DNA from: an uncultured delta proteobacterium | GTDB lineage: Bacteria; Myxococcota_A; UBA9160; SMWR01 | DNA: 64,000 bases | Direction of reading: 5' to 3' | NCBI GenBank assembly: GCA_963832165.1 | Contig: CAWHTE010000007.1 | Span: 320,001 to 384,000, forward strand | In this document: positions 9,399 through 63,857 of the stretch, in pieces | Numbering within the stretch: the first letter of the stretch is position 1 | How the letters are laid out: the number at the start of each line of letters is the position of its first letter | Translations under genes and position numbers: made by a program | Notes under the pieces: generated by a model | Databases searched by the model: none | Told to the model about the DNA's origin: nothing | What the model saw: only the letters and a program-made list of their open reading frames with translations

Positions 9399-9662
9399 TC
9401 ACGCCGCGCTCGCGACCTCCGGCTGCACCGCCGGCGACGACACGCGCACCGCGACACGCGCAAGCGCGGGAACCTCGCGCAGCGGCTGCGTCCAGCGGTG
9501 CTGGCAGCGCGGACATTCCGCGAGCAGGAGCCAGCTGCTGGTCTCCGCTCGCCCCTGGCTCGCTGCGCGCGGCTTGCCGCCGTACTCGACGGCGTCGGTG
9601 CGCACCTCGAGCGACCCGCACACCGCACACGCGGCTCCCGGAATCGCAAGCCTGTTCTGCAT
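9399..9662 (-). CDS. Small putative Zn-ribbon protein carrying an in-frame repeat insertion
   Basis: CAVC...CPRC pairs. First gene of the arsA unit. Confidence 0.55.
   Translation of the reverse strand: MQNRLAIPGAACAVCGSLEVRTDAVEYGGKPRAASQGRAETSSWLLLAECPRCQHRWTQPLREVPALARVAVRVSSPAVQPEVASAA
9540..9577 (-). repeat. Diverged copy of the dispersed 38-bp element, in frame inside the Zn-ribbon ORF
   Basis: Minus strand GCAAGCCGCGCGCAGCGAGCCAGGGGCGAGCGGAGACC: same length as consensus, 31/38 identical. Confidence 0.75.
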
Positions 9663-11772: not shown

Positions 11773-12692
11773 TTGCTGGCCGGGTCTGATGACTTCGCGA
11801 GACTTGCCACTGGCACGAGCTCGACCTCGAGCGGAAGCCCCGTCGGGAGCTTGTGTGCGGCCTCGCCTTCGAGGTCGATCTTCGCGACGAAGCTGAGCCT
11901 GCCGCGGTCGCGCTCGGTCAACGCGTAGTAGGGCGTGAACGCGGCCTCGTGCGTGACCGTGCGAACGTGCCCCGCGAACTCGCCTTCGACGCCGTCGATG
12001 TGCACCGCGGCACGCGCACCCGGCACGACCTGCGCGCGCACCTGCTCGGGCACGTAGACGCGCGCGTAGGGCGCGCCGTCGGCGAGCAGGATCGCCACCA
12101 CGGCGCCCGCGGCCGGGCGCTCGCCGAGCTCGTAGGGCAGTGCATCGACCTGGGCATCGCGCGGCGCTCGCACGACGAGCCGCCCCGCGTGCACACGCGC
12201 CTCCACGAGCATGGCCTCGGCCTGCGAGAGCTCGGCGCGCGCGGCGTCGCGCTCCGCGCGTGCACCGTCGCGCTGCGCGTGGGCGCGGTCGAGTGCCTCC
12301 GGCGATGCGACACCGGTCGCCCGCAGCTTCACGATCCGCGCGAGCTCGCGCTCGGCGGTCTGGAGCGCGCTCTGGGCCCCCGGGATGCGCGCGGCCGCGG
12401 CGTCGCGCCGGTGCTGCGCCTGCGCGACCAGCGCCGTGAGCCGCTCGGCGTCGAGACGCAGCACGACGTCGCCGGCCTTCACGAACGCGCCTTCGGGCAC
12501 CGCGCGCTCGACGATCGGCTCCGACGCCTCCGCGATCAGCTCGATCCGATCGCGCTCGAGCGTGCCGACGAAGCGAGGCTCGGCGTCTTCGGAGCACGCC
12601 GCCGCGGCGAGCCCCGTCGCGAGCGCTACGGCGAATCTCATGGCCTTCGCTCGCCTTCGGCTGGCTGCGCGAAACTTGCGGCGGCGCATCAT
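11769..12692 (-). CDS. HlyD family efflux periplasmic adaptor (lipoprotein); alternative start 12641
   Basis: Lipobox LAAAAC, lipoyl-like VPEGAFVKAGD, FTPYYALTERDR. ATG overlaps the tetR stop (ATGA). Confidence 0.85.
   Translation of the reverse strand: MMRRRKFRAASRRRAKAMRFAVALATGLAAAACSEDAEPRFVGTLERDRIELIAEASEPIVERAVPEGAFVKAGDVVLRLDAERLTALVAQAQHRRDAAAARIPGAQSALQTAERELARIVKLRATGVASPEALDRAHAQRDGARAERDAARAELSQAEAMLVEARVHAGRLVVRAPRDAQVDALPYELGERPAAGAVVAILLADGAPYARVYVPEQVRAQVVPGARAAVHIDGVEGEFAGHVRTVTHEAAFTPYYALTERDRGRLSFVAKIDLEGEAAHKLPTGLPLEVELVPVASLAKSSDPASK
12641..12681 (-). repeat. Dispersed 38-bp element copy at the tetR/hlyD junction
   Basis: Minus strand CCGCAAGTTTCGCGCAGCCAGCCGAAGGCGAGCGAAGGCCATG. 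Confidence 0.92.
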
Positions 12693-13448: not shown

Positions 13449-13512
13449 CCGCAAGTTTCGCGCAGCGAGCGCAAGTTTCGCGCAGCGAGCCGAAGGCGAG
13501 CGAAGACCATCA
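13449..13512 (+). repeat. Dispersed element copy with a tandem duplication of its first 20 bp
   Basis: (GCAAGTTTCGCGCAGCGAGC)x2 then CGAAGGCGAGCGAAGACCATCA. Confidence 0.93.
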
Positions 13513-13525
13513 AGCGGGAGGTCCC

Positions 13526-27632: not shown

Positions 27633-27720
27633 GGCGGCCTCCAGGCGCCCGCCAGCATACGCGGTGCGCTTTGCGGGCCCAAGAGGCCTCACCTACCTTG
27701 CCGGGCCGCAAGCCGTCAGG

Positions 27721-27748
27721 CGCGCAGCGAGGCGAAGCCGAGCGGAGC
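27721..27748 (+). repeat. Variant (subfamily B) of the dispersed element
   Basis: CGCGCAGCGAGGCGAAGCCGAGCGGAGC, with stem pair swapped relative to consensus. Confidence 0.75.
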
Positions 27749-27768
27749 CCAAAAGGGGAGATCGACCC

Positions 27769-27897
27769 GTGAAGAAGGCGAAGCCGCTGCCGCACCGCAA
27801 CCGCAAGAAGAGCGCGCGCCATCGCGCCAAGCTCAAGGCGAAGTTCCGCCGCAAGCGGCTCTCGCGCAGCAAGGGCGAGCGGAGCACCTACCGCTAG
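27769..27897 (+). CDS. 42-aa extremely basic small protein
   Basis: GGGGAG RBS 8 nt before GTG. 20/42 residues K/R. Lys all AAG, Arg mostly CGC. Confidence 0.7.
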   Translation: MKKAKPLPHRNRKKSARHRAKLKAKFRRKRLSRSKGERSTYR

Positions 27898-27953
27898 GAG
27901 ACGTCCGTGCCACCGCGAGTGGCGACGGCGTCCGCCTACCCTACGGTCCTCCC

Positions 27954-29120
27954 ATGAGCCCCGCCCCTTCGCAGCCGTTCCGCTTCGCGCTCGAAGGCAC
28001 GAGCGGCGACGCGCGCGCGGGCGCGTTCTCGACGCCGCACGGGCCGTTCTCGACGCCCGCATTCATGCCCGTCGGAACGCACGGCGCGGTGAAGGCGATG
28101 ACGCCCGATCAGGTCATCGCAACCGGCAGCGAGATCGTGCTCGCGAACACCTATCACCTCGCGCTGCGGCCCGGCGAGGAGCTCGTGGCGAAGCTCGGCG
28201 GACTGCACGCGTTCATGCGCTGGGATGGGCCGATCCTCACCGACAGCGGCGGCTTCCAGGTCTTCTCGCTGCCCAAAGCGGACATCAGCGACCGCGGCGT
28301 GCGCTTCCAGAGCGAGGTCGACGGCACACCGGTGGAGATCACGCCCGAGCGCTCGATCCAGATCCAGCACGCGCTCGGCTCCGACATCGCGATGGCGTTC
28401 GACGAGTGCACGCCGTACCCCGCCGACGAGAAGGACGCGCGCACGGGCGTGCGGCGCACGCTCGCGTGGCTCGAGCGCTGCGCGAAGGAGCACGCGGGCC
28501 GCCGCGATCAGGCGCTGTTCGGGATCGTACAGGGCAGCACCTATCAACATCTGCGCACGAGCTGTGCGCAGGCGGTCGTGGCGATGGACCTGCCCGGCGT
28601 CGCGATCGGCGGCGTGTCGGTGGGCGAGGGCCACGATCTGCTCGTGCAGGTGACGGGCTGGACGACGCCGCTCCTGCCCGAGGACAAGCCCCGCTATTTG
28701 ATGGGCGTGGGCCTGCCCGAGGACGTGCTCGCGGCGATCGGGCTCGGCATCGACATGTTCGACTGCGTGATCCCCACCCGCTATGCGCGCAGCGCCACGC
28801 TGTTCACGCGGCGCGGTCGCGTGCGCCTGACCAACCGCCGCTATCGCCGCGACGGCTACCCGATCGACCCGAGCTGCGACTGCGCGACCTGCGCCGCCGG
28901 CTTCACGCGCGCCTACCTGCACCACCTGTTCGCCGCGAACGAAATCCTCTCGGCGATCCTCGCCTCGGTACACAACGTGCGCTTCTACCAGCGCCTGGTC
29001 GCCGACGCGCGCACCGCGATCCTCGAGGGAGGCTTCGCAGAGTTCCGCGAGGCGTTCCTGGCCGACTACCGGTCGGGCGGACCCTCCAGCGAAGGCAGCG
29101 GCCCGGCAGCTCACCGGTAG
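27954..29120 (+). CDS. tgt: tRNA-guanine transglycosylase
   Basis: TPAFMPVGT, LANTYHL, TDSGGFQVFSL, DMFDCVIPTR, CDCATC, HN. Confidence 0.96.
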   Translation: MSPAPSQPFRFALEGTSGDARAGAFSTPHGPFSTPAFMPVGTHGAVKAMTPDQVIATGSEIVLANTYHLALRPGEELVAKLGGLHAFMRWDGPILTDSGGFQVFSLPKADISDRGVRFQSEVDGTPVEITPERSIQIQHALGSDIAMAFDECTPYPADEKDARTGVRRTLAWLERCAKEHAGRRDQALFGIVQGSTYQHLRTSCAQAVVAMDLPGVAIGGVSVGEGHDLLVQVTGWTTPLLPEDKPRYLMGVGLPEDVLAAIGLGIDMFDCVIPTRYARSATLFTRRGRVRLTNRRYRRDGYPIDPSCDCATCAAGFTRAYLHHLFAANEILSAILASVHNVRFYQRLVADARTAILEGGFAEFREAFLADYRSGGPSSEGSGPAAHR

Positions 29121-29132
29121 CTCGCGCGCAAT

Positions 29133-29148
29133 TGTGACTTCGATCACA
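29133..29148. promoter_or_regulatory. Perfect CRP-type box TGTGA-N6-TCACA
   Basis: TGTGACTTCGATCACA in the gap between tgt and the next gene. Confidence 0.6.
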
Positions 29149-29214
29149 CGGGGCGTCCTCGGAGTGGTCGATTTCCCTAGCACTTCGGAGGGGCCCGAGG
29201 TTGGGAGCAGCCCC

Positions 29215-29580
29215 ATGACCACACGCATCGCCCGATTGCTCGCGATTCTGGTCTTGCTCACCACCGCAAGCGCGTTGCCGGCCTCCGCGAACGGGCTCGA
29301 CACGATGCTGTGGCGGCCCCCGGTGAGCGGCGCGCGAGCGTTCACGGGCGACTGGGCCGGATTGCGGCTCTGGGCCGAGGGCGCGGGGTTCTCAGTGGGC
29401 CGGCGCTCGGCGGGGTTCGGGCTGCAGGGTGGTGCCTCGCTCCCGCTCGCCGAGCGCATCGGCCTCACGGCGGGCTACCGCCTGATGGGCTTCTCGCTGG
29501 GCGACCGGCTCGACGCGCAGCTCGACGACGTCGACTCGCGCGCATTCGCGCCGATTCTCGGGATCGACATCGAGTTCTGA
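29215..29580 (+). CDS. Small secreted, outer-membrane beta-strand-like protein
   Basis: Signal peptide (ASA-N), amphipathic strands, terminal Phe (LGIDIEF). Confidence 0.6.
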   Translation: MTTRIARLLAILVLLTTASALPASANGLDTMLWRPPVSGARAFTGDWAGLRLWAEGAGFSVGRRSAGFGLQGGASLPLAERIGLTAGYRLMGFSLGDRLDAQLDDVDSRAFAPILGIDIEF

Positions 29581-29617
29581 GCAGGCCGGGTGATCACGCG
29601 CGGCTATCTTCGCGCGC

Positions 29618-30103
29618 GTGTCGAACCAGCTGCTCTCGCCCGAAGAAGTGCTCGCGCGCTACACCGCCGGACCGAAGAGCGGCGTGTTCACGGACGGATC
29701 GTGCGAGGGCAACCCGGGCCCGGGCGGCTGGGGCGTGGTGTGGGTAGAGGACGACCAGGTCCGCGCCGAGAAATCGGGCGTGGATCCCTCCACCACCAAC
29801 AACCGCATGGAGCTCGCGGCGCTGATCGCGGCCTATGAGCTCCTGCCCGCCGACGCCGAGGTCACCGTCTACTCCGACAGTCAGCTGTGCGTGAAGACCG
29901 TGAACGAGTGGGCCGCGGGCTGGGAAGCGCGCGGCTGGCGTCGCAAGACCGGCCCGATCGCGAACCTCGAACTGGTCAAACGCCTCTACGCGCTCGCCAA
30001 CGCGCATCCGAAGGTCACGCTGCGCTGGATCCGGGCGCACGACGGCTCGAAGTGGAACGAGTACGCCGATGCGCTCTCGAACGCGTTCATGCGCGGCGCA
30101 TAG
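29618..30103 (+). CDS. rnhA: Ribonuclease HI
   Basis: FTDGSCEGNPGPGGWG, TTNNRMEL, YSDS, WIRAH, NEYADAL. Confidence 0.93.
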   Translation: MSNQLLSPEEVLARYTAGPKSGVFTDGSCEGNPGPGGWGVVWVEDDQVRAEKSGVDPSTTNNRMELAALIAAYELLPADAEVTVYSDSQLCVKTVNEWAAGWEARGWRRKTGPIANLELVKRLYALANAHPKVTLRWIRAHDGSKWNEYADALSNAFMRGA

Positions 30104-30162
30104 GCCGCCGAGGGGCACGATGACACGCCCCTTCTTGCTCGTTAGGCGACGGAAGGAGTGTC

Positions 30163-30609
30163 ATGAGTGACGGTGAGAACCCCTTCTGGGCCGCCGTGCG
30201 CGGCGAGGTTCCTGGCCCGCCCGCCGCGAAGCTGCTCGGGTTCAAGGTGCTCGAAGCGGTGCCGGGCAGCGGGCGCATCCGGGTCCAGTTCGAGGCCACC
30301 GACGAGTTCACGAACCCGATCGGCAACGTGCAGGGCGGCATCCTCGCCGCGATGCTCGACGACACGATGGGGCCGGCGCTCGCCACGACGTTCGGCGCGC
30401 ACGAGTTCGCACCGACGCTCGAGCTCAAGGTGAGCTTCGTCCGCCCGGGCAAGCCCGGGCCGATCTTCGGCACGGGCTGGGTCGTTCACCGCGGAGGCTC
30501 GGTGGCCTTCCTCCAAGGCGAGCTCCACGACGCGGCCGGCGAACTCCTCGCGACGGGCTCGGCGACGGCCCGTCTCGTCCGCGTGGAGCCGGGCGGCTTC
30601 AAGATCTGA
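30163..30609 (+). CDS. PaaI family thioesterase
   Basis: NPIGNVQGGILAAMLDD, TLELKVSFVRP. Confidence 0.88.
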   Translation: MSDGENPFWAAVRGEVPGPPAAKLLGFKVLEAVPGSGRIRVQFEATDEFTNPIGNVQGGILAAMLDDTMGPALATTFGAHEFAPTLELKVSFVRPGKPGPIFGTGWVVHRGGSVAFLQGELHDAAGELLATGSATARLVRVEPGGFKI

Positions 30610-30625
30610 GAGGGCAGCACGCCGA

Positions 30626-31303
30626 ATGGCACTCGTTGCGCACGACGCGGACCTCTGGAGCACCGAGTACGAGATGGGCTGGCCGGCCGGGCTGGTTCCG
30701 ATTCCGGTGCGCATGACGGTGATCCGACTCGGCGACGGACAGCTCATCCTGCACTCGCCGGCGCCGATCACGCGCGAGCTTCGCGACGAGCTCGCTGCGC
30801 TGGGCCGGGTCGGCTTCATCGTCGTCCCCGAAGCCCACGGCATGTTCGCGGGTGCCGCGGCGCAGAGCTTCCCGGACGCGCAGCTCCTCGCGGCGCCTTC
30901 CGCTCCGCTGCGGCGCAAGTCGCTCTCGTTCCACGCTTCGCTTGCGCACGAACCGCCCGCGGCGTGGGGCGGCAGCGTCGACTGCCATCTCGTGCGCGGG
31001 TTCCGGCTCCACGAAGTGGTGCTGTTCCATCGCGCGTCGCGGACGCTCGTGATTACCGACCTGTGCTTCAACATCCACCGCTCACCCACCCGGCTCGGCC
31101 GCGCGATCTTCCGCGCGAACGGCATGTGGCGGCGATTCGGGCCGAGCCGGCTGATCCGCTACCTGACCATCTCCCATCGCGCGGCGTTCCGGGGCTCGCT
31201 CGAGCACATCCTGCGCTGGGATTTCGAACGCATCGTCCCGGGGCACGGCGACGTCGTCGAGAGGGGCGGGCCCTCCGCACTGCGTGCGGCGTGGCTCGGC
31301 TGA
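30626..31303 (+). CDS. DUF4336 family (MBL-like) protein
   Basis: RMTVIRL, LHSP, EVVLFHRASRTLVITD, WDFERIVPGHG. Confidence 0.8.
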   Translation: MALVAHDADLWSTEYEMGWPAGLVPIPVRMTVIRLGDGQLILHSPAPITRELRDELAALGRVGFIVVPEAHGMFAGAAAQSFPDAQLLAAPSAPLRRKSLSFHASLAHEPPAAWGGSVDCHLVRGFRLHEVVLFHRASRTLVITDLCFNIHRSPTRLGRAIFRANGMWRRFGPSRLIRYLTISHRAAFRGSLEHILRWDFERIVPGHGDVVERGGPSALRAAWLG

Positions 31304-31330
31304 CGACCGCGCGGCTATCGTCCCCTCGCA

Positions 31331-31834
31331 ATGGGAGGGGACTTGCTCGAGGCACCGAAAGAGCTCCGCGAATTCCTCGCTGCGTTTCCCGAGGATGTCT
31401 CGAAGCTCTTCCTCGCGACTCGACGCTTCGTTCTCGAGGCATCCCCGGGCGCGAGCGAGCTGATCTACGACGCCTACAACGCGGTCTCGGCGGCCTACAC
31501 GTACTCGGGTCAGCTCAAGGAGGCCTTCTGTCACGTCGCGGCCTACTCGAGCTACGTGAATCTCGGCTTCAATCGCGGGGCCGAGCTGTCCGATCCGAAG
31601 CGCATCCTCGCGGGCTCGGGCGCGCGCATCCGCCACGTCCGCATCGAAGCTCCCGCGGATCTGCGCGCGCCGGCGCTCGCGGCGCTGCTGCGCGCAGCCG
31701 TGGCGCAGGGCCGCGCCCTCGCTTCCGAGGCCGGCACACGCAAAGCTTCCTCCACGATCCGCCCCACCACGGGGGGCAAACGCCGGCCCCAGCGCACCTC
31801 GTCACGCAACCAGCGGAGGAGCTCCAATCGATGA
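31331..31834 (+). CDS. DUF1801 domain protein
   Basis: VNLGFNRGAELSDPKRILAGSGARIRHV. Confidence 0.75.
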   Translation: MGGDLLEAPKELREFLAAFPEDVSKLFLATRRFVLEASPGASELIYDAYNAVSAAYTYSGQLKEAFCHVAAYSSYVNLGFNRGAELSDPKRILAGSGARIRHVRIEAPADLRAPALAALLRAAVAQGRALASEAGTRKASSTIRPTTGGKRRPQRTSSRNQRRSSNR

Positions 31835-32241
31835 AGGCCCTGAAGATCGTCCTGATCGCCGTTCTGGTCTACGTGGGAATCGTCGCCGCGTTCGAGACGA
31901 TGATCGGAACGCTGCAGCCCACGCCGGCCGAGTCGACGCTCGTGATCACGACCTCCGATCCCGACGGGACCGCACACGACCGGGTCGTTTCCCGTCTGGA
32001 CTCGGGCGGGCAGATCTATGTGTCTGCGAACCACTGGCCGCGCGCATGGTATCGGCGCGCGTTGGCGAACCCGGACGTGCAGGCCACGATCGACGGCAAC
32101 AAGGCCGACTATCGCGCCGTGCCCGTGACGGGCGAGGAGCACGATCGCGTCGACGCCGAGCATCCCCACTCGCCGTGGTTCCGGTTCATGACGGGCTACC
32201 CGCCGAGACTCTTCGTGCGACTGGATCCGCGCCAGCCGTGA
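31831..32241 (+). CDS. Nitroreductase/deazaflavin quinone-reductase-like split-barrel protein, membrane-anchored
   Basis: N-terminal TM, WYRRALANPDV, FVRLDPR. RBS GGAGGA. Confidence 0.6.
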   Translation: MKALKIVLIAVLVYVGIVAAFETMIGTLQPTPAESTLVITTSDPDGTAHDRVVSRLDSGGQIYVSANHWPRAWYRRALANPDVQATIDGNKADYRAVPVTGEEHDRVDAEHPHSPWFRFMTGYPPRLFVRLDPRQP

Positions 32242-32300
32242 GCGCGGGTCCATCGGGCGCGGGAGATCTCGCGGTCCTGGGTTGATCGGAGTCGGGGCGG

Positions 32301-33101
32301 ATGCCGACGCTCTCCATCGATGAACGCCGCCTGAGCTACGAGGACTACGGGAGCGGCCGCGTCGCGCTGCTGATCCACGGATCGCCCGGGAATGCGCGCG
32401 CGTGGACGCGAGTCGGTGAGCGACTCGCTGCGCGCTTTCGCGTCGTCGCGCCCGATCTGCCCGGCTACGGCGAGACCACGCCCCAGCCGCCCGAGCAGGA
32501 GCCCGATGCGGGCTATGCGAGCGAGCTCGTCGAGGCGCTCGTGCGCGAGGTCGGCCCGCCCGCAGTGCTCGCGGGCCACTCGTACGGCGGCGTGGTCGCG
32601 CTCTCGGTCGCGCTGCGCGGCAACGCGCCGATCCGCTCGCTCGCGCTGTTCGAGCCCGTCGCGCTGAAGATCCTGCCGCTCGCGGGCGCGTCCGACGCCT
32701 TCGCGGCCGCGAAGGCCGTCTTCGACGACTACTTCGCGAGCTTCGCGGGCGGAGATCACAGGGCCGTGCGGAAGATGATCGATCTGTGGTTCGGCGACGG
32801 TGCGTTCGCGAGCATGCCCGACTCGCTGACCTCGTACTTGATCAGCGACACGGCCTCGAACATCCGGGACGTTCGCGCGACGTTTCGCGAGAGCTACTCG
32901 GTCGAGGCGTTCCGAAAGCTCGCGATGCCCGTGCTCTCGGTGGTCGGCGAACGGAGCCCGGAAGTCACGCATCGGATCGCGCGCGCGATCAGCGATTTCG
33001 CGCCGCACGGCGCGCTCGAGACGATGGCGGACGCCACGCACGCGCTCACCACTACACACGTGGAGGCCGTCGCCGACGCTATTTCGCGGGCCGCGCGTTA
33101 G
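32301..33101 (+). CDS. Alpha/beta hydrolase
   Basis: LIHG, PDLPGYG, GHSYGG, C-terminal His. Confidence 0.88.
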   Translation: MPTLSIDERRLSYEDYGSGRVALLIHGSPGNARAWTRVGERLAARFRVVAPDLPGYGETTPQPPEQEPDAGYASELVEALVREVGPPAVLAGHSYGGVVALSVALRGNAPIRSLALFEPVALKILPLAGASDAFAAAKAVFDDYFASFAGGDHRAVRKMIDLWFGDGAFASMPDSLTSYLISDTASNIRDVRATFRESYSVEAFRKLAMPVLSVVGERSPEVTHRIARAISDFAPHGALETMADATHALTTTHVEAVADAISRAAR

Positions 33102-33738
33102 GACCGAAGCGCTCCCAGTGCAGGGATTCGTCGACGGGCCGACGCGGAGGGCGCCCGTACTTCCCGAGCGGCCAGCCGATCGGCAGCATCGCGCAGCTCG
33201 GCTGCTCCGGCGGCAGGCCAAGATAGGTGTCGATCTCGGCGTGGAATGCCAGGTGCAGCGTGGTGAGTGACGCGCCGAGCCCGACGGCGCGGCACGCGAG
33301 CAGCACGTTCTGGATGCACGGGAACAGCGCCTGGGTCTGCGGCTCGCCGCGGCGCTTCCAGCCCGCTACGAACAGCAGCACGGGCGCCTCGTGGAGGTGG
33401 TCCGCCAGGTATGTCGCGGCGCGCACGTTGCGGCGCTTCGCGTCGGGATAATCGGGCGACCGGGCCGCCTCGGCGGCCTGCTCGGCATAGCGGTGAAACG
33501 CGGTGCGATAGCGCTCCGCGATCCACGCGCGCCGCTCGCGCTCGGTCACCGCGACGAAGGTCCACGGCTGGCGGTTCCCGCCACTCGGCGCGAACGTGCC
33601 GGCCTCGCACACTTTGCGGATCAGCGCCGGCGGAACCGGATCGGGCCGCAGCCGGCGGATCGCGCGCGCGGTGCGGATCGCCTCGAACAGCCCCACGTCT
33701 TCGCCGAGTGCGTCGACGTCGATCGGGGCGTCGGTCAC
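33079..33738 (-). CDS. Nitroreductase family protein
   Basis: RAIRR, APSGGNRQPW, QNVLLACRAVGLG, PIGWP. Confidence 0.88.
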   Translation of the reverse strand: MTDAPIDVDALGEDVGLFEAIRTARAIRRLRPDPVPPALIRKVCEAGTFAPSGGNRQPWTFVAVTERERRAWIAERYRTAFHRYAEQAAEAARSPDYPDAKRRNVRAATYLADHLHEAPVLLFVAGWKRRGEPQTQALFPCIQNVLLACRAVGLGASLTTLHLAFHAEIDTYLGLPPEQPSCAMLPIGWPLGKYGRPPRRPVDESLHWERFGPNARPAK

Positions 33739-33747
33739 GGTTCGCTC

Positions 33748-34173
33748 CTAGAGCTTCGTCTTGCCGAGTGCGAGGATGCGCGCGAACGCGCGCGGCTCGA
33801 TCGGCATCACCGAGAGCCGACCCTGGCGCACGAGCGCGATCTGCGCGAGCGCGGCATCGCGCTTGATCTCCGCGAGCGTCACCGGCTCCCGCAGCGCCGC
33901 CACGGTCGCGAGGTCGACTACCACCCAGCGCTCGTCGTCCGTCGTGGGATCGGGATAGGCCGCCTTAACGACCTTCACGACGCCGACGATCTCCTTGTCC
34001 TCACCGCTGTGATAGAAGAGCGCGAGGTCGCCCGCGCGCATCGCCTGCAGGTTGTTGCGCGCCTGCGGGTTGCGCACGCCGTCCCAGCGCGTGCGGCCGT
34101 CCTTCACGAGCTCGTCCCAGCCGTAGGTGTCGGGATCGGACTTCACGAGCCAGTGCGAGAGTGCGCGCGGCAC
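33748..34173 (-). CDS. EVE domain protein
   Basis: WLVKSDP, WDGVRNPQARNNL, FYHSG, QGRLSVMP. Confidence 0.9.
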   Translation of the reverse strand: MPRALSHWLVKSDPDTYGWDELVKDGRTRWDGVRNPQARNNLQAMRAGDLALFYHSGEDKEIVGVVKVVKAAYPDPTTDDERWVVVDLATVAALREPVTLAEIKRDAALAQIALVRQGRLSVMPIEPRAFARILALGKTKL

Positions 34174-35378
34174 TACTGGAGGTCCTCGGGCGTGTGGCGG
34201 CGCGTGTACTCGTGCGCGAGATGGGCGACCAGCGAGCGCGGCGCGAGCCGCTGCGAAGCGTTCGCGCGCAGCCAGTTCCACCAGCCCGACACCACGGACG
34301 GCTGGCGTCCGAGCGCTTCGAGCGCGACTTCGACCACGGCCTCGGGCGACTCGCCCGCGTGCGGTAGCTCGCCGGCCACGCCGTGGAACTCGCTCTCCGT
34401 CGAGCCGGGCTCCACGACGAGCACGTCGACCCCGAAGCGGCGCTGCTCGACGTAGAGCGCCTCGCCTAGCAGCTGGTCGAATGCCTTCGTGGCCGCGTAC
34501 ACGTTGTGCAGCGGCAACGGCTGCCGGCCCGCGACCGATCCCGTGAAGATGATCGCGCCGCGGCCGCGCTCCTGCATGCGCGGCAAGAGCCTCCGCGCGA
34601 GCAGCATCGGCGCGACACAGTTGACGGTCACCATGTCGCGCAAGCGTTCGGCCTGGAGCTTGTCGAAGCGGCCCGCGGCGCCGAAGCCCGCGTTGTTCAC
34701 GAGCACTGCGATCGGGAGGTCCGACACCGCGCGTGCGACGCGCTCGGCGCCCTCGGCGTTGGCGAGGTCCTCCGCCACCACCCGTGTCTCCACCGAGAAG
34801 GCCTTCTCGAGGTCCGATGCGAGCGCGTCGAGCCGGTCGGCGCGCCGCGCCGAGAGCACCACCGACATCCCCTCGCGCGCGAGCGCGCGCGCGAACGCCT
34901 CGCCGATCCCGGCCGACGCGCCGGTCACGAGCGCCCAGTCGCCGTAGCGCTCGCGCATCGGCACGCGCTCTTCGCCGAACAGTTGCTCGGCCTCCCAGAG
35001 CGCGCGCGCGAGCAGCGCAAACGGCACGAATGCGATCATTCCGAGCAACAGGCCGAAGCTCTTCTCGTAGATCAGCGGCCACACGAGCATGCCGACCGCC
35101 ACAGAGCCCACGTACACGGCCGCCCACGGCCACAACCACGAGCGCATGCGGTAGAAGCCGTAGAAGCCCGCCGCATAGATCGCCCAGTGCAGCGGCTCGG
35201 TGAGCTTCGCGCCCCAGCCCGTGAACATGATCCCGACCCAGACCTCCTCGTCGCGCGAGACCGGCTTCCAGAGGAAGTCCCACGGCACGTACACGAACGC
35301 CATGTACGCGCAGAACACCATCAGCGCGTTGATCCAGGCCGGGCGCCCGGAGAAGACATCGGAAAGCCAATCGCGCAC
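34173..35378 (-). CDS. SDR oxidoreductase fused to an N-terminal ~4-TM membrane domain
   Basis: TGASAGIG, NNAG, YAATK, preceded in frame by ~125 hydrophobic residues. Confidence 0.82.
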   Translation of the reverse strand: MRDWLSDVFSGRPAWINALMVFCAYMAFVYVPWDFLWKPVSRDEEVWVGIMFTGWGAKLTEPLHWAIYAAGFYGFYRMRSWLWPWAAVYVGSVAVGMLVWPLIYEKSFGLLLGMIAFVPFALLARALWEAEQLFGEERVPMRERYGDWALVTGASAGIGEAFARALAREGMSVVLSARRADRLDALASDLEKAFSVETRVVAEDLANAEGAERVARAVSDLPIAVLVNNAGFGAAGRFDKLQAERLRDMVTVNCVAPMLLARRLLPRMQERGRGAIIFTGSVAGRQPLPLHNVYAATKAFDQLLGEALYVEQRRFGVDVLVVEPGSTESEFHGVAGELPHAGESPEAVVEVALEALGRQPSVVSGWWNWLRANASQRLAPRSLVAHLAHEYTRRHTPEDLQ

Positions 35379-35441
35379 GGATCGACCTCGGGGGCCGGAG
35401 TAGAATGACGCAGCTACACGAAAGTGGGGAGGGAAAGAAGC

Positions 35442-36632
35442 GTGGGACCGCTCGACGGAATCCGGATCCTCGACCTCACCATCGCGCTCTCGGGACCGTG
35501 GGCGGTCGGGATCCTCGCGGATCAGGGCGCCGATGTGGTGAAGGTGGAGCCGCCCGGGATCGGCGACATCGGGCGCTGGGTGGGCCCTGCAATCGGCGGC
35601 GTCTCCGCGATGGCGCAGATCGCCAACCGCGGCAAGCGCTCGATCGCGATCAACCTTCACACCGAACCCGGCCGCGAGATCGCGCGCGCGCTCGCCGCGC
35701 GCGCGGACGTGTTCGTGCAGAACTTCCGCCCCGGCGTGATCGAGCGGCTCGGGCTGGGCTACGACGTGCTCTCGGCGTCGAATCCGGGCCTCGTGTACGT
35801 CTCGATCAGCGGCTTCGGCGCGTCGGGACCCTACGCGCACAAGAGCGCCTACGACCCGGTCGTGCAGGCCTACGGCGGCCTGGCCGCGGTACAAGCGGGC
35901 GCGAGCGGCGAGCCGCAGCTGATCCGCCACACCGCCGCCGACAAGATCACCTCGCTCACCGCCGCGCAGGCGATCACCGCAGCGCTGTTCGCGCGCGAGC
36001 GAAGTCGATCCGGCGCCGGTGGACAGCACCTCGAGCTCTCGATGCTCGAGAGCGTGATGAGCTTCGTGTGGGCCGACGCCGCGGGCAACGAGGTGCTGCT
36101 CGACTCCGACGGAAAGCAGCCGTCGAGCTTCTCGCGCGATCAGAAGCTCTGGCCGACCAAGGATGGCTACGTGATCGCGGCGCCGGTTTCCGACGACGAC
36201 GTCGCGGCGATCTGCCGCGGTGTCGGCGTGGACGGCTACGACGATCCGAAGGTCGCGACGATCATCGCGCGCCGGCAGAACACGGAGGCGTTCCAGGCGC
36301 TGTTGCGGCGCGTGTACGCCGCGGTGGGCAACATGACCACGGCCGAGGCGATCCGCGGCATGGAGCGCGAGCGCGCGCCGTGCGGTGCCGTGCTAGGCCC
36401 CGCCGAGCACCACCTCGACCCGCAGGTGGTCGCGCTCGGTGTGCTCGAAGACTCGCTCCACCCCGCTGCGGGGCGCCTGCGCCAGCCGCGCCCGCCCGCG
36501 CGCTTCGCGGCGACGCCCGCGAAGACGGGCGCGCCCGCGCCCACGATCGGCCAGCACACCGACGAGATTCTCGCCGAGCTCGGCATGCGCGAGCAGATCG
36601 CCGCACTGCGCGCGGCGGGATCGGTGGCCTGA
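35442..36632 (+). CDS. CaiB/BaiF class III CoA-transferase
   Basis: LDGIRILDL, GADVVKVEPP, NRGKRSI, NFRPGV, GQHTDEIL. Confidence 0.92.
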   Translation: MGPLDGIRILDLTIALSGPWAVGILADQGADVVKVEPPGIGDIGRWVGPAIGGVSAMAQIANRGKRSIAINLHTEPGREIARALAARADVFVQNFRPGVIERLGLGYDVLSASNPGLVYVSISGFGASGPYAHKSAYDPVVQAYGGLAAVQAGASGEPQLIRHTAADKITSLTAAQAITAALFARERSRSGAGGQHLELSMLESVMSFVWADAAGNEVLLDSDGKQPSSFSRDQKLWPTKDGYVIAAPVSDDDVAAICRGVGVDGYDDPKVATIIARRQNTEAFQALLRRVYAAVGNMTTAEAIRGMERERAPCGAVLGPAEHHLDPQVVALGVLEDSLHPAAGRLRQPRPPARFAATPAKTGAPAPTIGQHTDEILAELGMREQIAALRAAGSVA

Positions 36633-36637
36633 GCTCG

Positions 36638-37159
36638 ATGTCGCGGTCCGCGAAGATCGTCGCGATCTGCGCGGGCCACCTGGCCTCGCTCGCAGCCGCT
36701 TGTGCGGCGGGCTGGGCATACAACGCACGCGTCTCGGCACTGCCCTACGACACGTCGGGCGGCATGTACGCCGGAGGCGAGGCGCTCACGGCGCTCGCTG
36801 CGTTCGCCGCCCTCGCGCTGCCGACGACGCTCGTCGCGCTCCTCTTCCTGCGCAGCCAGGAGCGGTTCTGGCACGGGGTCGCCGTGCTCTCGCTCGCGTT
36901 CGCGAGCGCGGGTCTGCTCGCGGTGCTGTCGCCACTCGTGATTCCCGGCGTGGAGGGCCACCCCGTCCTCTGGCCGCTCGGCCTGCTCTGGCTCGCCCAG
37001 CTGCTCGGTGTGCCGCTGTGGACGGTGGCCTTCGCGCTGCTCGCGGTGATCGCTCCGACGTGGCGGACACGCCGGCTGCTGCTCGCCGCGACCGGCATCG
37101 AGCTCGTGATCGCAGTCTGCGCCGCGATCCACTGGTTCGTGCCGTCGCCGCCGTTCTAG
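36638..37159 (+). CDS. Hypothetical membrane protein
   Basis: About five hydrophobic segments. Fills the gap between neighbouring genes. Confidence 0.65.
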   Translation: MSRSAKIVAICAGHLASLAAACAAGWAYNARVSALPYDTSGGMYAGGEALTALAAFAALALPTTLVALLFLRSQERFWHGVAVLSLAFASAGLLAVLSPLVIPGVEGHPVLWPLGLLWLAQLLGVPLWTVAFALLAVIAPTWRTRRLLLAATGIELVIAVCAAIHWFVPSPPF

Positions 37160-37161
37160 CG

Positions 37162-37893
37162 CTAGTTCTGCTTCTCGCTCTCGCCGCGCAGCGGCACGAA
37201 GCGCACCGGCATCAGGCGTTTGCGCTCGATGCCGCGATCGGTCTTCGTATAGAGCCAGAGCTCCTGATCGAAGCTCGGGCCCACCGGGATCACGAGCCGG
37301 CCGCCCGGCGCGAGCTGCTCGAGCAGCGCGGGCGGCACGTGATCGGGCGCCGCGGTGACGAGGATCGCCTCGAACGGCGCCACCTCGGGCCAGCCGCGGT
37401 AGCCGTCGCCCGTGCGCGTGTGGACGTTGGTGCAGCCGAGCCGCTCGAGGTCGGCCTTCGCGCGCGCGGCGAGCGCGGCCTCGATCTCGATCGTGTAGAC
37501 CTCACGCGCGAGCTCCGAGAGCACCGCGGCCTGGTAGCCCGAACCCGTGCCCACTTCGAGCACGCGCTCGCTGCCCGTGAGCGCGGCGGCTTCGCTCATC
37601 GCCGCGACGATGTAGGGCTGCGAGATCGTCTGGCCCGCGCCGATCGGCAACGGATTGTCGTCGTACGCGTCGGCGCGCTCGCCGTCCGGCACCAGCTCGT
37701 GGCGCGGCACCCGGCCCATCGCCTCGAGCACGCGCGCGTCGCGGATCCCTCGCGCGGCGAGCTGCTCGCGCACCATGCGCGCGCGCGACTCGGCGTAGTC
37801 GTCGCTCATCGGCGCGGGCACCTCGCGCGAGCCTCCGCCACACCCGAGCCACCAGAGCGAGGCGAGCAGCATGCTGCGGATCCGGGGTTGCAC
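37162..37893 (-). CDS. pcm: Protein-L-isoaspartate O-methyltransferase (start uncertain)
   Basis: GQTISQPYIVA, VLEVGTGSGYQAA, GDGYRGWP, VTAAP, VRFVPL. Confidence 0.93.
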   Translation of the reverse strand: MQPRIRSMLLASLWWLGCGGGSREVPAPMSDDYAESRARMVREQLAARGIRDARVLEAMGRVPRHELVPDGERADAYDDNPLPIGAGQTISQPYIVAAMSEAAALTGSERVLEVGTGSGYQAAVLSELAREVYTIEIEAALAARAKADLERLGCTNVHTRTGDGYRGWPEVAPFEAILVTAAPDHVPPALLEQLAPGGRLVIPVGPSFDQELWLYTKTDRGIERKRLMPVRFVPLRGESEKQN

Positions 37894-37897
37894 CGAC

Positions 37898-38764
37898 TCA
37901 CACCTCGAACACCACCTGACGCAGCCCCCAGGTGATCGGAGGCGCCGGCTCCTCGCCGTCGCGCAGCGCCGCGAGGGCTTCTCCGAGTTCGTCGCGCTCG
38001 GAGGCCGTCGTGCGCGCCGCCACGGCCGCGTGATCGCGCAGCGTCTCCCAGTTCAATGAGAACATACCGGCCGCATCGCGCGGGTCGACCGCGAGCTCGC
38101 GCACGCGGCTCTCGCGCACGCGCGCGTCGCGCACTGCGAGCGCGCCGATCCGCGCGCCCACGTAGAGACACTGCGACTGCGCCGCGAGCACCGCCTCGAC
38201 CAGCGCGAGATAGCGCCGGAACGGTTCGCCGTCGCTGCGGATCCACTCGACCTCGTCGAGGAGCAGGCGACCGCCGCGCGCGAGCTGCGACGCGAACAGG
38301 CCGATCGCGGCCTCGGGATCGGCGAGGTGCGAGACCAGGAAGCGCGCGAAGAGCGTGTCGGCGCGGCCGCAGGGGTAGGGCGCGGCGAGCGCGTCATGGC
38401 ACAAGAACTCGCAGCCCGCGGGCGCGCGCTCCTGCGCGAGCTCGACGTATGCGGGCGACGCGTCGAGTCCCACGCAGCGCTCGCTCGAGAGCACGCGCGC
38501 GAGCAGCTCGGTGGTGTGGCCGGGACCGCAGCCGAGGTCGACCGCGACTGCGCTGCCGCGCCGGCCCCAGGCCGCGATGAAGTCTTCCGATGCGGGCTCG
38601 AACACGCGCGCGACCAGCGCGAGGCGGCGCGCCGCGCGCTCGGAATCGCCGAACGCGTACATTGCCGGGCCTGCGCGCTCGCTGCTCGCTCGCGCTCGGG
38701 CTCCTGCCTTCGCTCGGCTCCGCCTCGCTGCGCGTCGGCCGACTTCGTCGGCCTCCTTGCTCAT
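37898..38764 (-). CDS. Class I SAM-dependent methyltransferase (alternative start 38662)
   Basis: [25 protein letters not shown] overlaps the upstream stop. Confidence 0.8.
38707..38753 (-). repeat. Subfamily B element copy plus adjacent GGCCGAC-GAA-GTCGGCC hairpin
   Basis: Minus strand CGCGCAGCGAGGCGGAGCCGAGCGAAGG (38734-38707). Perfect 7-bp hairpin at 38737-38753. Confidence 0.75.
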
Positions 38765-39255
38765 GCCCCGCCTGATGGTCTTCGCTCGCCTTCGGCTCGC
38801 TGCGCGAAACTTGCGGCCTCGATCACCTCGCGCGGCGCCTGCACGAGCTCGATCAGCACGCCCTCGCCACCGTTCTTCGGGTGGATGAAGCAGACGTCGT
38901 GCCCGGCCGCGCCCTTGCGGATGCCGCCCGGCGTGAAGCGGACGCCCTGGGCTTCGAGCCACGGCACCGCCGCGGCGAGGTCGTCCACCCAGAGTCCGAC
39001 ATGGTTCAGCGCGGGGTCGTGCACCTTCGGCTTGCCGTTCGGGTCGATCGGCTGCATCAGGTCGACCTCGACGCGGTGCGGACCCGCACCCGCCACCGCG
39101 ATGTCCTCGTCGACGTTCTCGCGCTCGCTGCGGAACTCGCCCTCGAGCGTGAGGCCCAGGAGATCGATCCAGAGCCGGCGCAGCGCGAGCTTGTCGGGCC
39201 CACCCACGGCGATCTGCTGCAATCCGAGCACCTTGAACGGTCGCGCCGCCATCAC
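38761..39255 (-). CDS. VOC family enzyme (methylmalonyl-CoA epimerase/glyoxalase-like)
   Basis: [31 protein letters not shown]-terminal tail is repeat-encoded. Confidence 0.85.
38774..38817 (-). repeat. Dispersed element copy encoding the VOC C-terminus
   Basis: GCCGCAAGTTTCGCGCAGCGAGCCGAAGGCGAGCGAAGACCATCA on the minus strand. Confidence 0.95.
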
Positions 39256-43301: not shown

Positions 43302-46949
<3,648 letters not shown>

Positions 46950-57538: not shown

Positions 57539-57590
57539 CAAGTCTCATGGACTTCGCTCGCCTTCGGCTCGCTGCGCGAAACTTGCGGCC
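57539..57590 (-). repeat. Dispersed element copy encoding the HemL C-terminus and stop codon, with imperfect terminal inverted repeats
   Basis: GGCCGCAAGTTTCGCGCAGCGAGCCGAAGGCGAGCGAAGTCCATGAGACTTGC on the minus strand. Confidence 0.95.
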
Positions 57591-58864: not shown

Positions 58865-61373
58865 GCGGTGCCGCTGCCCGGCTCCGGGACGTCCCGCTCG
58901 GCCAGGCGCGCCATCGACACGATCTTCTCGTCGTCCGCGAGGTTCATGATCCGCACGCCCTGGGTCGCGCGGCCCATCGTGGAGATGCCCGCGACGCGCG
59001 CGCGCAGCACCTTGCCACCGTCCGTGATCAGCATGACCTCGTCGTCGTCGACCACCTGCGCCACCGACACGACCGGCCCGTTTCGCGCGGAGGTGCGGAT
59101 CGTGATGATGCCCATGCCACCGCGCCGCTGGACCCGGTAGTCCTCGAGCGGCGTGCGCTTGCCGTAGCCGCGCTCGGTCACCGTGAGCACGGTCGCGACG
59201 GGCGAGAGGATCTCCATTCCCACCACGCGGTCGCCCTCGCGCAGCATCATGCCGCGCACGCCACCCGCAGCGCGTCCCATCGCGCGCACCTGCTCTTCGG
59301 GGAAGCGGATCGACTTGCCGTCGCTCGTCGCGATGATCACCTCGTGGTGGCCGTTGGTGCGGCACGCGGCGATCAGCTCGTCGTCGTCGTCGAGTGTGAT
59401 CGCGATGATCCCGCCGCGGCGCGGGTTCGAGTACGCGTCGAGGCGCGTCTTCTTGATCACGCCCTTGCGCGTGCACAGAAGCACGTAGGCCTCTTCGTCG
59501 AACGCCCGCACGGGCAGGGTCGCGCGCACGCGCTCGCCGTCGGCGAGCTGGAGCACGTTCGCGAGCGATTTGCCGCGCGCCGCGCGCCCGAGCTGCGGCA
59601 GCTCGTGAACCTTGAGCCAGTGCGCGCGTCCGCGCGTGGTGAAGAACAGGATGTAGGCGTGGGTCGAGGCGATGAACAGGCGCTCGACGAAGTCCTCCTC
59701 GCGCGCCTCCATGCCCTTCACGCCCTTGCCGCCGCGGTGCTGCGCGCGGTACTCGGTGAGCGCGTTGCGCTTGATGTATCCGTGGTGGGACACGGTCACG
59801 ACCATGTCCTCCTCGACGATCAGGTCCTCGGTGGTCAGCCCCTCGACCGCCGCGGCCAGCTCGGTGCGCCGCTCGTCGCCGTACTGCTCGCGGATCTCGG
59901 CGAGCTCCTCGACCACCACCTCGCGGATCTTCTCGTCGCTCGCGAGCAGGGCCTTCAATTCCTCAATCTTTGCGCGCACCTCCGCGAGCTCGTCCAGCAC
60001 GCGCTGGCGCTCCATCGCGGTGAGCGAACGCAGTCGCATTTCGAGGATCGCGTTGGCCTGGCGCTCGGAGAGCTCGAAGCGGGTGATCAGCGCCGTGCGC
60101 GCAGCGCCCGTGTCGTCGGCTCCGCGGATGATCGAGATCACCTCGTCGAGGTGGTCGAGCGCGATCGCGAAGCCCTCGAGCAGGTGCGCGCGCGACTCGG
60201 CCTGCGCGAGGTCGTAGGTGGCGCGCCGCACCACCACCTCGCGCCGGAAGTCGATGAAGTGCTGGAGCGCCTCCTTGAGCGGCAGCGTCTGGGGCCGGCC
60301 GTTCACGAGCGCGAGCAGGTTCACGCCGAAGGTGGTCTGCAGCGGCGTCTGCTTGTAGAGCTGGTTCAGCACCACGTCGCCGGGCGCGTCCTTCTTGAGC
60401 TCGATCACGACGCGCATGCCTTCGCGATTGCTCTCGTCGCGCAGGTCGCCGACGCCGTCGATCTTGCCCTCGCGCGCGAGCTCGGCGATCCGCTCGAGCA
60501 TCGACGACTTGTTGACCATGAAAGGGATCTCGGTCACGACGATCCGCTCGCCGCGCTTGGTCGTCTCCATCTCGGCGCGCGCGCGCACGGTGAGCAGACC
60601 GCGGCCCGTCGCGTAGGCGGAGCGAATCCCCTCGTGGCCGCAGATGATCGCGCCGGTCGGGAAATCGGGTCCGGGCATCTTCTCGAGCAGGTCGTCGAGC
60701 GTGCAACCGGGGTTGCGCACGACGAGCGTGATCGCGTCGATCAGCTCGCGCAGATTGTGCGGCGGCACGTTGGTGGCCATGCCCACCGCGATCCCCGAGG
60801 AGCCGTTCGCGAGCAGGTTCGGGAAGCGCGACGGCAGCACCACCGGCTCCATCATGCCGCCGTCGAAGTTCGGCACGAAGTCGACCGTCTCGCGGTCGAT
60901 GTCGCGCAGCATCTCCTCGGCGAGCCGCGTGAGGCGCGCCTCGGTGTAGCGGTAGGCGGCCGCCGGATCGCCGTCGATCGAGCCGTAGTTGCCCTGGCCG
61001 TCGACGAGCGGGTAGCGGAGCGAGAAGTCCTGGGCCATCCGCACCATCGAGTCGTAGACGGCGCTGTCTCCGTGCGGGTGGTAGTGCTTGAGCACCTCGC
61101 CGACCACGCCGGCCGACTTCGAGTAGCCGCGCGTCGAGAGCAGCCCTTCCTGCTGCATCGCGTACAGGATCCGCCGATGCACGGGCTTCAGGCCGTCGCG
61201 CACGTCGGGCAGCGCGCGGGAGACGATCACCGACATCGAGTAGTCGAGGAACGAGCGCCGGACCTCGTCCTCGATGTTCACGGGCGGCGAAAACGGCTCC
61301 GACGGCGCCCCCCGCCCGGCGGCGGGGGCTCGGGCGGCTGGGGCGGGGGCGTGATCTCGATCCCGTCACTCAT
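58861..61373 (-). CDS. gyrA: DNA gyrase subunit A (probable 1-nt indel in the G-run near 61310; main ORF 58861..61281)
   Basis: [29 protein letters not shown], GyrA-box QHRGGKG, beta-pinwheel repeats. Confidence 0.96.
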
Positions 61374-61376
61374 GCT

Positions 61377-61416
61377 GGTCTTCGCTCGCCTTCGGCTCGC
61401 TGCGCGAGACTTGCGG
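61377..61416 (-). repeat. Dispersed element copy filling the gyrB-gyrA spacer
   Basis: TGA-CCGCAAGTCTCGCGCAGCGAGCCGAAGGCGAGCGAAGACC-AGC-ATG. Confidence 0.95.

Positions 61417-63857
<2,441 letters not shown>

Follow-up and report, generated by a model that had tools for sequence, protein, structure and literature searches.

The small dispersed repeats (SDRs) of cyanobacteria, described by Elhai and co-workers in 2008, are said to be very small mobile repeats of conserved structure that nest within themselves, lie in frame in genes and have no known enzyme; they reportedly measure 21-27 nt, have preferred targets and are proposed to act as RNA. Elements of the IS200/IS605 group insert 3' of a fixed target of 4-5 nt without loss of bases, in an orientation set by the replication fork. 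The mycobacterial interspersed repetitive units (MIRUs) are described in PMC3184786 as repeats of 40-100 bp, scattered in dozens of copies over sites that may be empty or filled, with direct repeats of four nucleotides and imperfect inverted repeats at their ends. The GTAG/CGTC repetitive extragenic palindromes (REPs), according to PMC3733652, form short hairpins behind a constant, unpaired 5' tag, and some of them lie in frame in genes including repair genes; unpaired GA is reported there in one REP family. Coding palindromes of the Rickettsia palindromic element (RPE) type figure in both accounts. We describe here a repeat of about 48 to 110 nt found in a stretch of 64,000 nt, called the window below (positions 320,001 to 384,000 of contig CAWHTE010000007.1, assembly GCA_963832165.1), from an uncultured delta proteobacterium whose genome, G000, comprises about 5.5 Mb with 70% G+C. 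It resembles MIRUs, RPEs, SDRs and REPs in the way it works, yet departs in a defining feature from each of these families that could be tested. New is a small mobile repeat that inserts along the direction of transcription and whose conserved part is a predicted single-strand hairpin with G·A pairs. In the literature searched, which lay outside subscription papers such as those on SDRs and the original one on MIRUs, no account of this family or of G·A-paired mobile repeats was found.

The most conserved part of the repeat is a core of 17 nt. The window holds seven matches to the pattern GCGAG-NN-GNA-NN-CGAGC, where 0.16 would be expected and none of 100 shuffles reaches seven; two decayed minus-strand copies (12649-12665 and 9547-9563) raise the number to nine. 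For the search of G000, copies were picked by anchors outside the core; 153 of the 202 matches lay within 2 changes of the consensus and were kept, and the other 49, with at least 5 changes, were dropped as unrelated. Apart from the loop base, 124 of the 153 copies show the exact consensus. The middle base of the G-N-A loop is A in 110 copies, C in 23, G in 13 and T in seven. The tandem pairs G3·A15 and A4·G14 are retained in 147 and in all 153 copies, respectively, and pair 6-12 is C-G in 107, G-C in 41 and broken in five. Since the other departures from the core are mostly single and uncompensated, as decay after insertion would give, the 6-12 swap within G000 is one inherited subfamily difference, that is, one event and not many. 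No Rfam family reached its gathering score within the window.

The core is the middle of a modular element with the layout GCAAG-[hairpin 1]-GCGCA-core-GNAG-tail, where the tail is purine-rich; in the short form of about 48 nt, its consensus resembles a Shine-Dalgarno (SD) sequence. The first hairpin ranges from a stub to a stem of 9 bp or more. Among 344 copies it occurs in 145 different sequences, of which 129 form a hairpin, with 65 different 5' arms, and its commonest loop is GNA (54 of the 129), closed by C-G in all 54 cases; G·T accounts for 11 of 743 pairs, a count obtained with a helix picker that penalised wobble. One subfamily gains a second tandem-GA hairpin, and each of the three upstream types is found with A as well as with B cores. 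In a form seen at genus level the tail is longer by about 55 nt and often ends in CTAG or TTAG next to a gene of the opposite strand. This long-tailed form was matched in G000 and G005 only among 59 genomes; it has no shared gene downstream, and RNAalifold returned no structure for 19 of the long tails.

That the core is paired is seen from covariation: the pairs 6-12 and 2-16 covary widely, and a third, 7-11, does so in a few copies. A scan of 193 genomes for cores with a base other than C at position 2 produced 646 matches, spread over 67 genomes. A hand tally of the 150 listed among them shows pair 2-16 as T-A in 96, T·G in 37 (27 of these from one genus), A·A in nine, G·G in four, and A·G and G·A in two each; none has G-C or A-T. 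Cores with C at position 2 and a base other than G at position 16 were found in only 45 matches in 25 of the 193 genomes. T2-A16 is seen with both inner subfamilies (6-12 as C-G and as G-C), and the change from C2-G16 retains the pyrimidine-GA-purine rule on each GA. At distant loci both inner pairs are Watson-Crick in 150 of 156 matches, with the closing pair 7-11 varied to G-C in four and to T-A in one. Pair 1-17 shows no covariation, with 17 one-sided changes in 44 genomes. The covarying genomes are kin and no independent sample, and a single origin is possible for each variant; the two widespread double changes would be hard to obtain without pairing. From sequence and covariation, the core very probably folds as a single-strand hairpin whose stem contains tandem G·A pairs and whose GNA loop is closed by C-G. 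The original prediction had proposed such a strand-specific fold from the core GCGAGCC-GAA-GGCGAGC and from two B-type cores, the latter of which indeed read GCGAGGC-GAA-GCCGAGC at 27727-27743 on the plus strand and GCGAGGC-GGA-GCCGAGC at 38712-38728 on the minus strand. It had claimed a compensatory change at 6-12 and named covariation across copies as a check; the pair counts at 6-12, 2-16 and 7-11 bear the fold out more firmly than it could show at the time, and 2-16 adds a second compensatory pair in the relatives. Its hairpin was thus right as a structure; what escaped it was the larger mobile element to which the core belongs.

The CGAG block has been defined by nuclear magnetic resonance (NMR; PMC10085684), GNA loops and closure by C-G are both DNA-specific stabilisers, the closure being worth about 3 kcal/mol in d(GNA) loops (PMC3201870), and mini-hairpins resist nucleases and bind single-stranded DNA-binding protein (SSB) poorly, while their RNA counterpart melts much lower (PMC13037366). 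The core conforms in sequence and covariation to the CGAG-block rule, with pyrimidine-GA-purine on both strands and a GNA loop closed by C-G. RNA parameters yield exactly the proposed fold, at -5.4 versus -3.3 kcal/mol for the complement. DNA parameters return the inner three pairs alone; the DNA folding model presumably lacks terms for sheared pairs. We consider it probable that the folded strand acts as DNA rather than RNA, and it is solely the loop chemistry that argues for this, namely the C-G-closed triloops and the reported low stability of the mini-hairpins as RNA. The bases flanking the core are invariant (A0·G18, G-2·A20, C-3-G21) and would allow a further GNA/GNA zipper, which is a known motif. 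The stem may extend through it; no copy with both partners changed was found in 113 genomes, so this extension has no covariation behind it.

The repeat is a mobile element, which is close to certain from the comparison of G000 with G004, a sister species with a 3.4-Mb genome. About 1 Mb was compared (with overlaps), at a fourfold silent divergence of 0.293. For 107 clusters of G004 an orthologous site in G000 was available; a core within 2 edits was present at 17 of these, and the other 90 resemble random sequence (the control gave 1 in 150 at 0 edits). In the reverse direction, from G000 to G004, 16 of 44 were within one edit. The flank matches the empty site with an identity of 0.74-0.98 as far as position -4 and less well at -3 to -1; from GCAAG onward the identity is no more than background. 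The 5' junction is therefore sharp, and the right junction is ragged, spread over some 10-30 nt. No letter is enriched in 54 empty sites, and a GC target motif hinted at by a few alignments is gone in the profile of these sites. Among 36 pairs anchored on both sides, target bases were replaced in 31, the insertion was clean in one, and an apparent duplication of 1-3 nt was seen in four, so that a direct repeat of the MIRU type is not found; CTAG stands on both sides at one convergent site. Net insert lengths of 33-45 nt for a 48-nt unit imply that 3-15 target bases are replaced. Older copies have received a new one in their core loop in 23 cases. Tandems occur as well, with a period of 42 nt for 13 of 43 neighbours, and several copies sit in loops of GTAG REPs. 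Of the 17 shared sites, 11 have a different free loop base in the two genomes and four a different A/B type, a comparison that nested clusters blur; because of these differences we read the shared sites as rewritten by new copies, the alternative being selection in place. A long-tailed copy of G004 (L175) and one of G000 (C11 near 597100) occupy the same convergent junction, between two CTAG words, in opposite orientations, either by inversion or by two independent insertions. In four DNA sequencing runs (small shares, contigs only), none of the joints listed skips a copy.

Insertions follow the direction of transcription. Of the 166 clusters in G000, 66 overlap a called coding sequence (CDS) and nine lie in convergent gaps; intergenic copies are spread roughly as gap length predicts. 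Deep in CDSs the folded strand is the sense strand in 27 cases and antisense in one, at CDS edges the counts are 34 and 4 (61:5 within genes overall), and in co-directional gaps 48 and 19. The bias persists in head-on units (17 sense, 4 antisense). Insertions specific to G004 show 24 sense and no antisense copies within CDSs, and 34 to 4 at junctions. A replication-strand bias was rejected: the skew, itself weak, could be called in the bins of 60 of the 166 clusters, and of these 31 are leading and 29 lagging. Within genes the copies are read as peptides of 13 or 14 residues, with in-frame inserts in Mfd, PurH, BirA, AMP-binding enzymes and an ATPase that we take to be RadA/Sms-like from its motif, Pfam having given AAA_25. 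The 54 sense intragenic copies use the three frames 28, 22 and 4 times, the arginine-rich frame being the one used four times, and 42 of 61 net insert lengths are divisible by three. This skew in frame use indicates that host selection on inserts is strong. Two of the three antisense frames of the common unit are open, one of them coding a polar peptide, and host selection does not obviously explain the near absence of these open antisense frames. We lean towards the view that the sense polarity is made by the mechanism of insertion itself.

The best reading of these data is a non-autonomous element of the MIRU/SDR/RPE kind that would be selected as folded single-stranded DNA during copying. 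The structure would be conserved since only well-folded copies get copied, as we propose. Selection most plausibly acts during copying, and not on resident copies for the benefit of the host, because most sites are lineage-specific, broken pairs are uncompensated and one orthologous copy is half eroded. The scheme begins with the fold as traced by covariation, in which the C-GNA-G loop would be followed by three pairs, the tandem G·A block and outer pairs, with the variable hairpin behind the fixed GCAAG. It continues with the observed movement, which has a sharp 5' and a ragged 3' end, knows no target consensus or duplication, replaces a few to about 15 bases and often goes into older loops, and with the correlation that, in any fork direction, it is the sense strand of the host gene that comes to contain the folded strand. 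A putative enzyme able to nick DNA or to transfer strands, either HUH-like or one of host repair, would then free the folded strand at GCAAG, where the structure of G·A pairs and GNA loops may shield it from nucleases and SSB, be read by the enzyme, or both. Where transcription exposes the non-template strand, a 3'-OH there would be linked to the 5' end; the 3' end would be trimmed and joined after short resection of the target, which would account for its ragged appearance. Eventually, host selection would keep in-frame inserts that code polar peptides and junction inserts with a ribosome-binding tail. For this chain as a whole, a non-autonomous element that measures about 48 nt, or about 110 nt at most, and whose folded strand is handled as single-stranded DNA, we would put the chances at about even. 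The idea of the original prediction that the displaced non-template strand is involved agrees with the correlation, as orientation follows transcription and not replication, whereas the strand step itself belongs to the conditional part of the scheme. Its view that selection acts on a single-stranded structure recognised by a protein is supported as to the structure; as to the protein, no candidate enzyme among the few families searched was found flanked by the element or distributed with it.

Several observations weigh against this scheme, foremost those on a mobilising enzyme, for which few families were searched in genomes that are incomplete. None of the 12 Y1 genes of G000 is flanked by the element. 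A REP-associated tyrosine transposase (RAYT) above the cut-off occurs in G000 only, in one of 41 genomes. The other Y1 family is missing from the element-rich G003, G004, G005 (99% complete, 76 copies), G009 and G016 and is present in G015, which has no copy of the element. The genes between neighbouring copies look, by eye, like housekeeping genes. On the structural side, nearest-neighbour folding does not single out the core (z of about 0.2 as DNA, -1.3 to -1.4 as RNA), and folding programs gave no significant z-score for the core or the 51-nt element on either strand; a long copy of 106 nt reached -2.1 as RNA and -1.3 as DNA. The T·G variants at pair 2-16 would also be permitted in RNA. The orientation counts depend on gene calls from a hexamer caller made for this analysis, and strong host selection could inflate the sense bias. 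The median replacement of 13.5 bases is an overestimate, the two species being 29% apart at silent sites. Finally, cores at the 17 shared sites differ by 0-2 edits, where about 7 would be expected at the silent divergence, and such copies, far less decayed than neutral sites, could also be explained by selection in place. As to the enzyme, it may have come and gone. Side by side with these results, G000 contains eleven dispersed copies of a Y1-like transposase of about 230 aa (L001, L003-L010) with an N-terminal Gly/Arg-rich motif and short inverted flanks, a family with up to 23 matches per genome. It also has a separate GTAG REP family of about 150 copies (e.g., L002, C4:535405-535842) with one RAYT, which favours convergent gaps and whose loops use the motifs GA-GC-GAA-GC-GA and GCC-GAA-GGC. 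The only GIY-YIG frame in G000, of 625 aa, does not explain the element.

The rival explanations are not all mutually exclusive. Insertion might be blind to orientation and the sense bias be made later by host selection, through tolerated peptides, the ribosome-binding tail and the harm of a C-rich strand in mRNA. We regard this as rather unlikely: the rarity of the arginine-rich frame (4 of 54), the excess of lengths in multiples of three, the purine-rich, SD-like tail, and a bias weaker between genes (48:19) than within them (61:5) all fit it, but the open antisense frames do not, and the ratios of 27:1 in G000 and 24:0 among G004-specific copies arise within coding sequences, where an SD-like tail brings no gain. 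A position as host regulatory signals, acting in mRNA stability, translational coupling or as a protein-binding site under purifying selection in place, would agree with the closeness of the 17 shared cores, the sense orientation and the SD-like tails. It is rendered very improbable by the 90 of 107 lineage-specific sites, the altered loop bases (11 of 17) and subfamilies (4 of 17) at shared sites, which point to rewriting as far as nested clusters allow, a copy number of 1-139 within the genus, and the spread of intergenic copies by gap length. Concerning the structure, the conserved sequence could instead form a string of three GC-GNA-GC mini-hairpins, made of the GCA before the core, the inner loop and the GNA after it. 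The flanking GCGCAGC and GCGNAG, a free downstream N along with a G subfamily at the upstream N, and the missing covariation of pair 1-17 are in line with such a string, to which we give little probability, since T2-A16, the commonest variant (96 of 150 listed), weakens the first mini-hairpin and breaks the third while the long stem is preserved.

Other rivals concern the agent of transfer. In an RNA route, a reverse transcriptase would prime on a nicked target and copy the complementary RNA, so that the GA strand would be a cDNA with a sharp start and variable truncation. The junctions, the head-to-tail tandems of 42 nt and the rare long-tailed form suit target-primed copying, and the exact fold with RNA parameters and the tolerated T·G at 2-16 suit an RNA; yet there is no RVT_1 match in G000 or in the element-rich G003-G006, G009, G013, G014 and G017, and triloops with a free N and C-G closure dominate instead of GNRA or UNCG tetraloops, which makes this route improbable. 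No better prospects are seen for movement in trans by a resident RAYT or by the Y1 family flanked by terminal inverted repeats, with the element as a tag-less cousin of the GTAG REPs. The RAYT of G000 is flanked by GTAG REPs, these share the above loop motifs with the element, and seven of the eight genomes (of 41) with the Y1 family carry the element, but the element has no GTAG tag and flanks no Y1 gene of G000, occupies convergent gaps in 9 of 166 cases versus 78 of 148 for the REPs, and abounds in G005, where no Y1 gene was found. A more radical and rather doubtful possibility is a selfish oligonucleotide of about 48 nt without a transposase of its own, which host enzymes would stitch into the non-template strand of transcribed genes, overwriting older copies; the strand would survive as its stacked G·A pairs and mini-hairpins would resist nucleases and exclude SSB. 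Compared with these, a non-autonomous element selected as folded single-stranded DNA during copying remains our preferred reading.

Against this background the known families can be set beside the element; MIRUs and SDRs are set apart by their descriptions. Like SDRs, the element nests in its own copies without target duplication, but it is longer (48-110 nt) and modular, has no target consensus and has loops of the DNA type. A non-autonomous member of the IS200/IS605 group was rejected on the absence of any enriched letter in the 54 empty sites, the replaced bases and the fork ratio of 31:29, and a miniature inverted-repeat transposable element on the lack of complementarity between the GCAAG start and the variable purine tail and of a regular duplication. 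The likeness to MIRUs as described in PMC3184786 lies in the size of 40-100 bp, dispersal, empty and filled sites, G+C-rich internal inverted repeats, tandem arrays and frames running into operon neighbours, and position and orientation of the element fit the setting of polycistronic mRNA. The difference is that the element has neither tetranucleotide direct repeats nor terminal inverted repeats, replaces target bases and belongs to another phylum. As with RPEs, in-frame inserts add short peptides to housekeeping proteins; the element is shorter than the RPEs described (PMC3184786, PMC3733652), is not a Watson-Crick palindrome and is nearly always sense. With the REPs of PMC3733652 it shares the short hairpin, a fixed unpaired 5' tag and occasional in-frame copies. 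It was rejected as a GTAG/CGTC REP on its 5' end, GCAAG, and on the RAYT not being flanked by it, and the REP niche of 3' ends and convergent or unidirectional gaps was rejected on the 66 of 166 clusters within CDSs and the low share of convergent gaps (9/166 versus 78/148). From REPs and REPINs as documented in PMC3116915 it differs in being nested or in direct tandem instead of forming inverted dimers, and in inserting into REP loops; the REP consensus families of PMC3733652 may include relatives of it. Its motifs, including the CCGAAGG mini-hairpin, are those of the CGAG and GNA oligonucleotides, and mini-hairpins are reported (PMC10085684, PMC13037366, PMC3201870) at the phage G4 origin, RSF1010 ssiA and the N4 promoters. 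The cases known from there are oligonucleotides or single functional sites, whereas here the motif is the conserved core of a multicopy mobile element; a priming signal would predict a replication-strand bias, and the element has none.

In the window, a whole element of subfamily B at 27708-27758 (+; right end approximate), composed of the GCAAG 5' end, a small first hairpin, the core at 27727-27743 (+; GC-GA-GGC-GAA-GCC-GA-GC) and a purine-rich tail, lies in a divergent gap before an ORF of 42 aa, whose native ribosome-binding region it has replaced; the orthologous site has no copy in G001, G004, G005 and G006. The ORF itself (27769-27897, +), upstream of tgt, encodes a very basic, Lys/Arg/His-rich product conserved in four congeners; it had no Pfam or NCBIfam match and could be a small ribosome- or nucleic-acid-binding protein. 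A long B-type element at 38663-38760 (-) combines GCAAG, a first hairpin GGCCGAC-GAA-GTCGGCC, the core with a GGA loop at 38712-38728 (-) and a third module carrying a second tandem-GA hairpin (38675-38695). It ends at the start codon of a methyltransferase gene and is absent in G001, G004 and G006. Next to it, a short A-type element (38767-38814, -) extends the 3' end of a gene of the glyoxalase family in frame, by 17 residues. Within mfd, a nested pair at 43661-43763 (+) consists of an A-type copy inside the core loop of an older copy, in frame, with a net gain of 90 nt; this loop of the protein holds another, different copy in G003. Further A-type elements are found at 13451-13518 (+), behind the left half of an older copy and upstream of an LLM oxidoreductase gene, at 57540-57586 (-), where the 3' end of hemL receives a new stop codon (eroded copy in G004; none in G001, G003, G005 and G006), and at the gyrB-gyrA junction, 61367-61414 (-; absent in G001, G003, G005 and G006). 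An A-type copy with G3 changed to C (12632-12679, -) precedes an RND adaptor gene, and a decayed A-type copy with an altered loop spans 9530-9577 (-). At five window sites, copies are absent from most or all of the congeners compared. Apart from the element, gyrB (61417-63857, -) seems split over two frames, possibly by an assembly frameshift, as an ORF of 411 aa matches only positions 406-803 of the GyrB model and overlaps an upstream ORF of 457 aa; and degenerate tandem repeats of 18-45 nt at 5278-5525 probably code a Pro/Ala-rich linker on the minus strand.

The core pattern is found in 28 of 41 genomes of the order, with 0 to 326 matches each, the reversed control giving 0 matches. Within the genus, copies range from 1 to 139: G001 (95% complete) has one, versus 60-139 in the other six genomes, and would offer a natural contrast for finding the mobilising factor. 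Lineages differ too: cores with a base other than C at position 2 were matched in 14 of 17 genomes of family f7 and in 1 of 68 of family f10. Among the matches listed, the family is present in records titled Myxococcota, Deltaproteobacteria, Spirochaetales (high G+C) and Longimicrobiaceae and in phage contigs. Many records titled Spirochaetales (L184, L186, L189 and similar) have surroundings of 63-80% G+C like those of Myxococcota, and the label may be a taxonomy mapping error. Four matches come from viral contigs. Two overlapping phage contigs (L310:300-415 and L313) hold a copy resembling the element, in which core motifs are repeated, within non-coding sequence that precedes a run of genes, and the other two carry the core alone; no replication or mobility gene was identified beside the viral matches, ORFs having been listed for one contig, without annotation.

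For the organism and its order, the element is a steady source of inserts of 13-30 residues in housekeeping proteins. Most knowledge of tandem G·A and GNA motifs comes from NMR of oligonucleotides; to this the element adds natural covariation evidence that they are under selection in genomes. With its hundreds of insertions confined to single lineages, its naturally occurring compensatory variants, defined rules for the junctions and a strong polarity relative to transcription, the family makes the question testable with a synthetic oligonucleotide, and it gives a handle on how the smallest bacterial repeats spread. If the selfish-oligonucleotide reading were true and MIRU, SDR and RPE repeats shared its chemistry, DNA would have a general way to move, and peptides a way to enter proteins, that is coupled to transcription.

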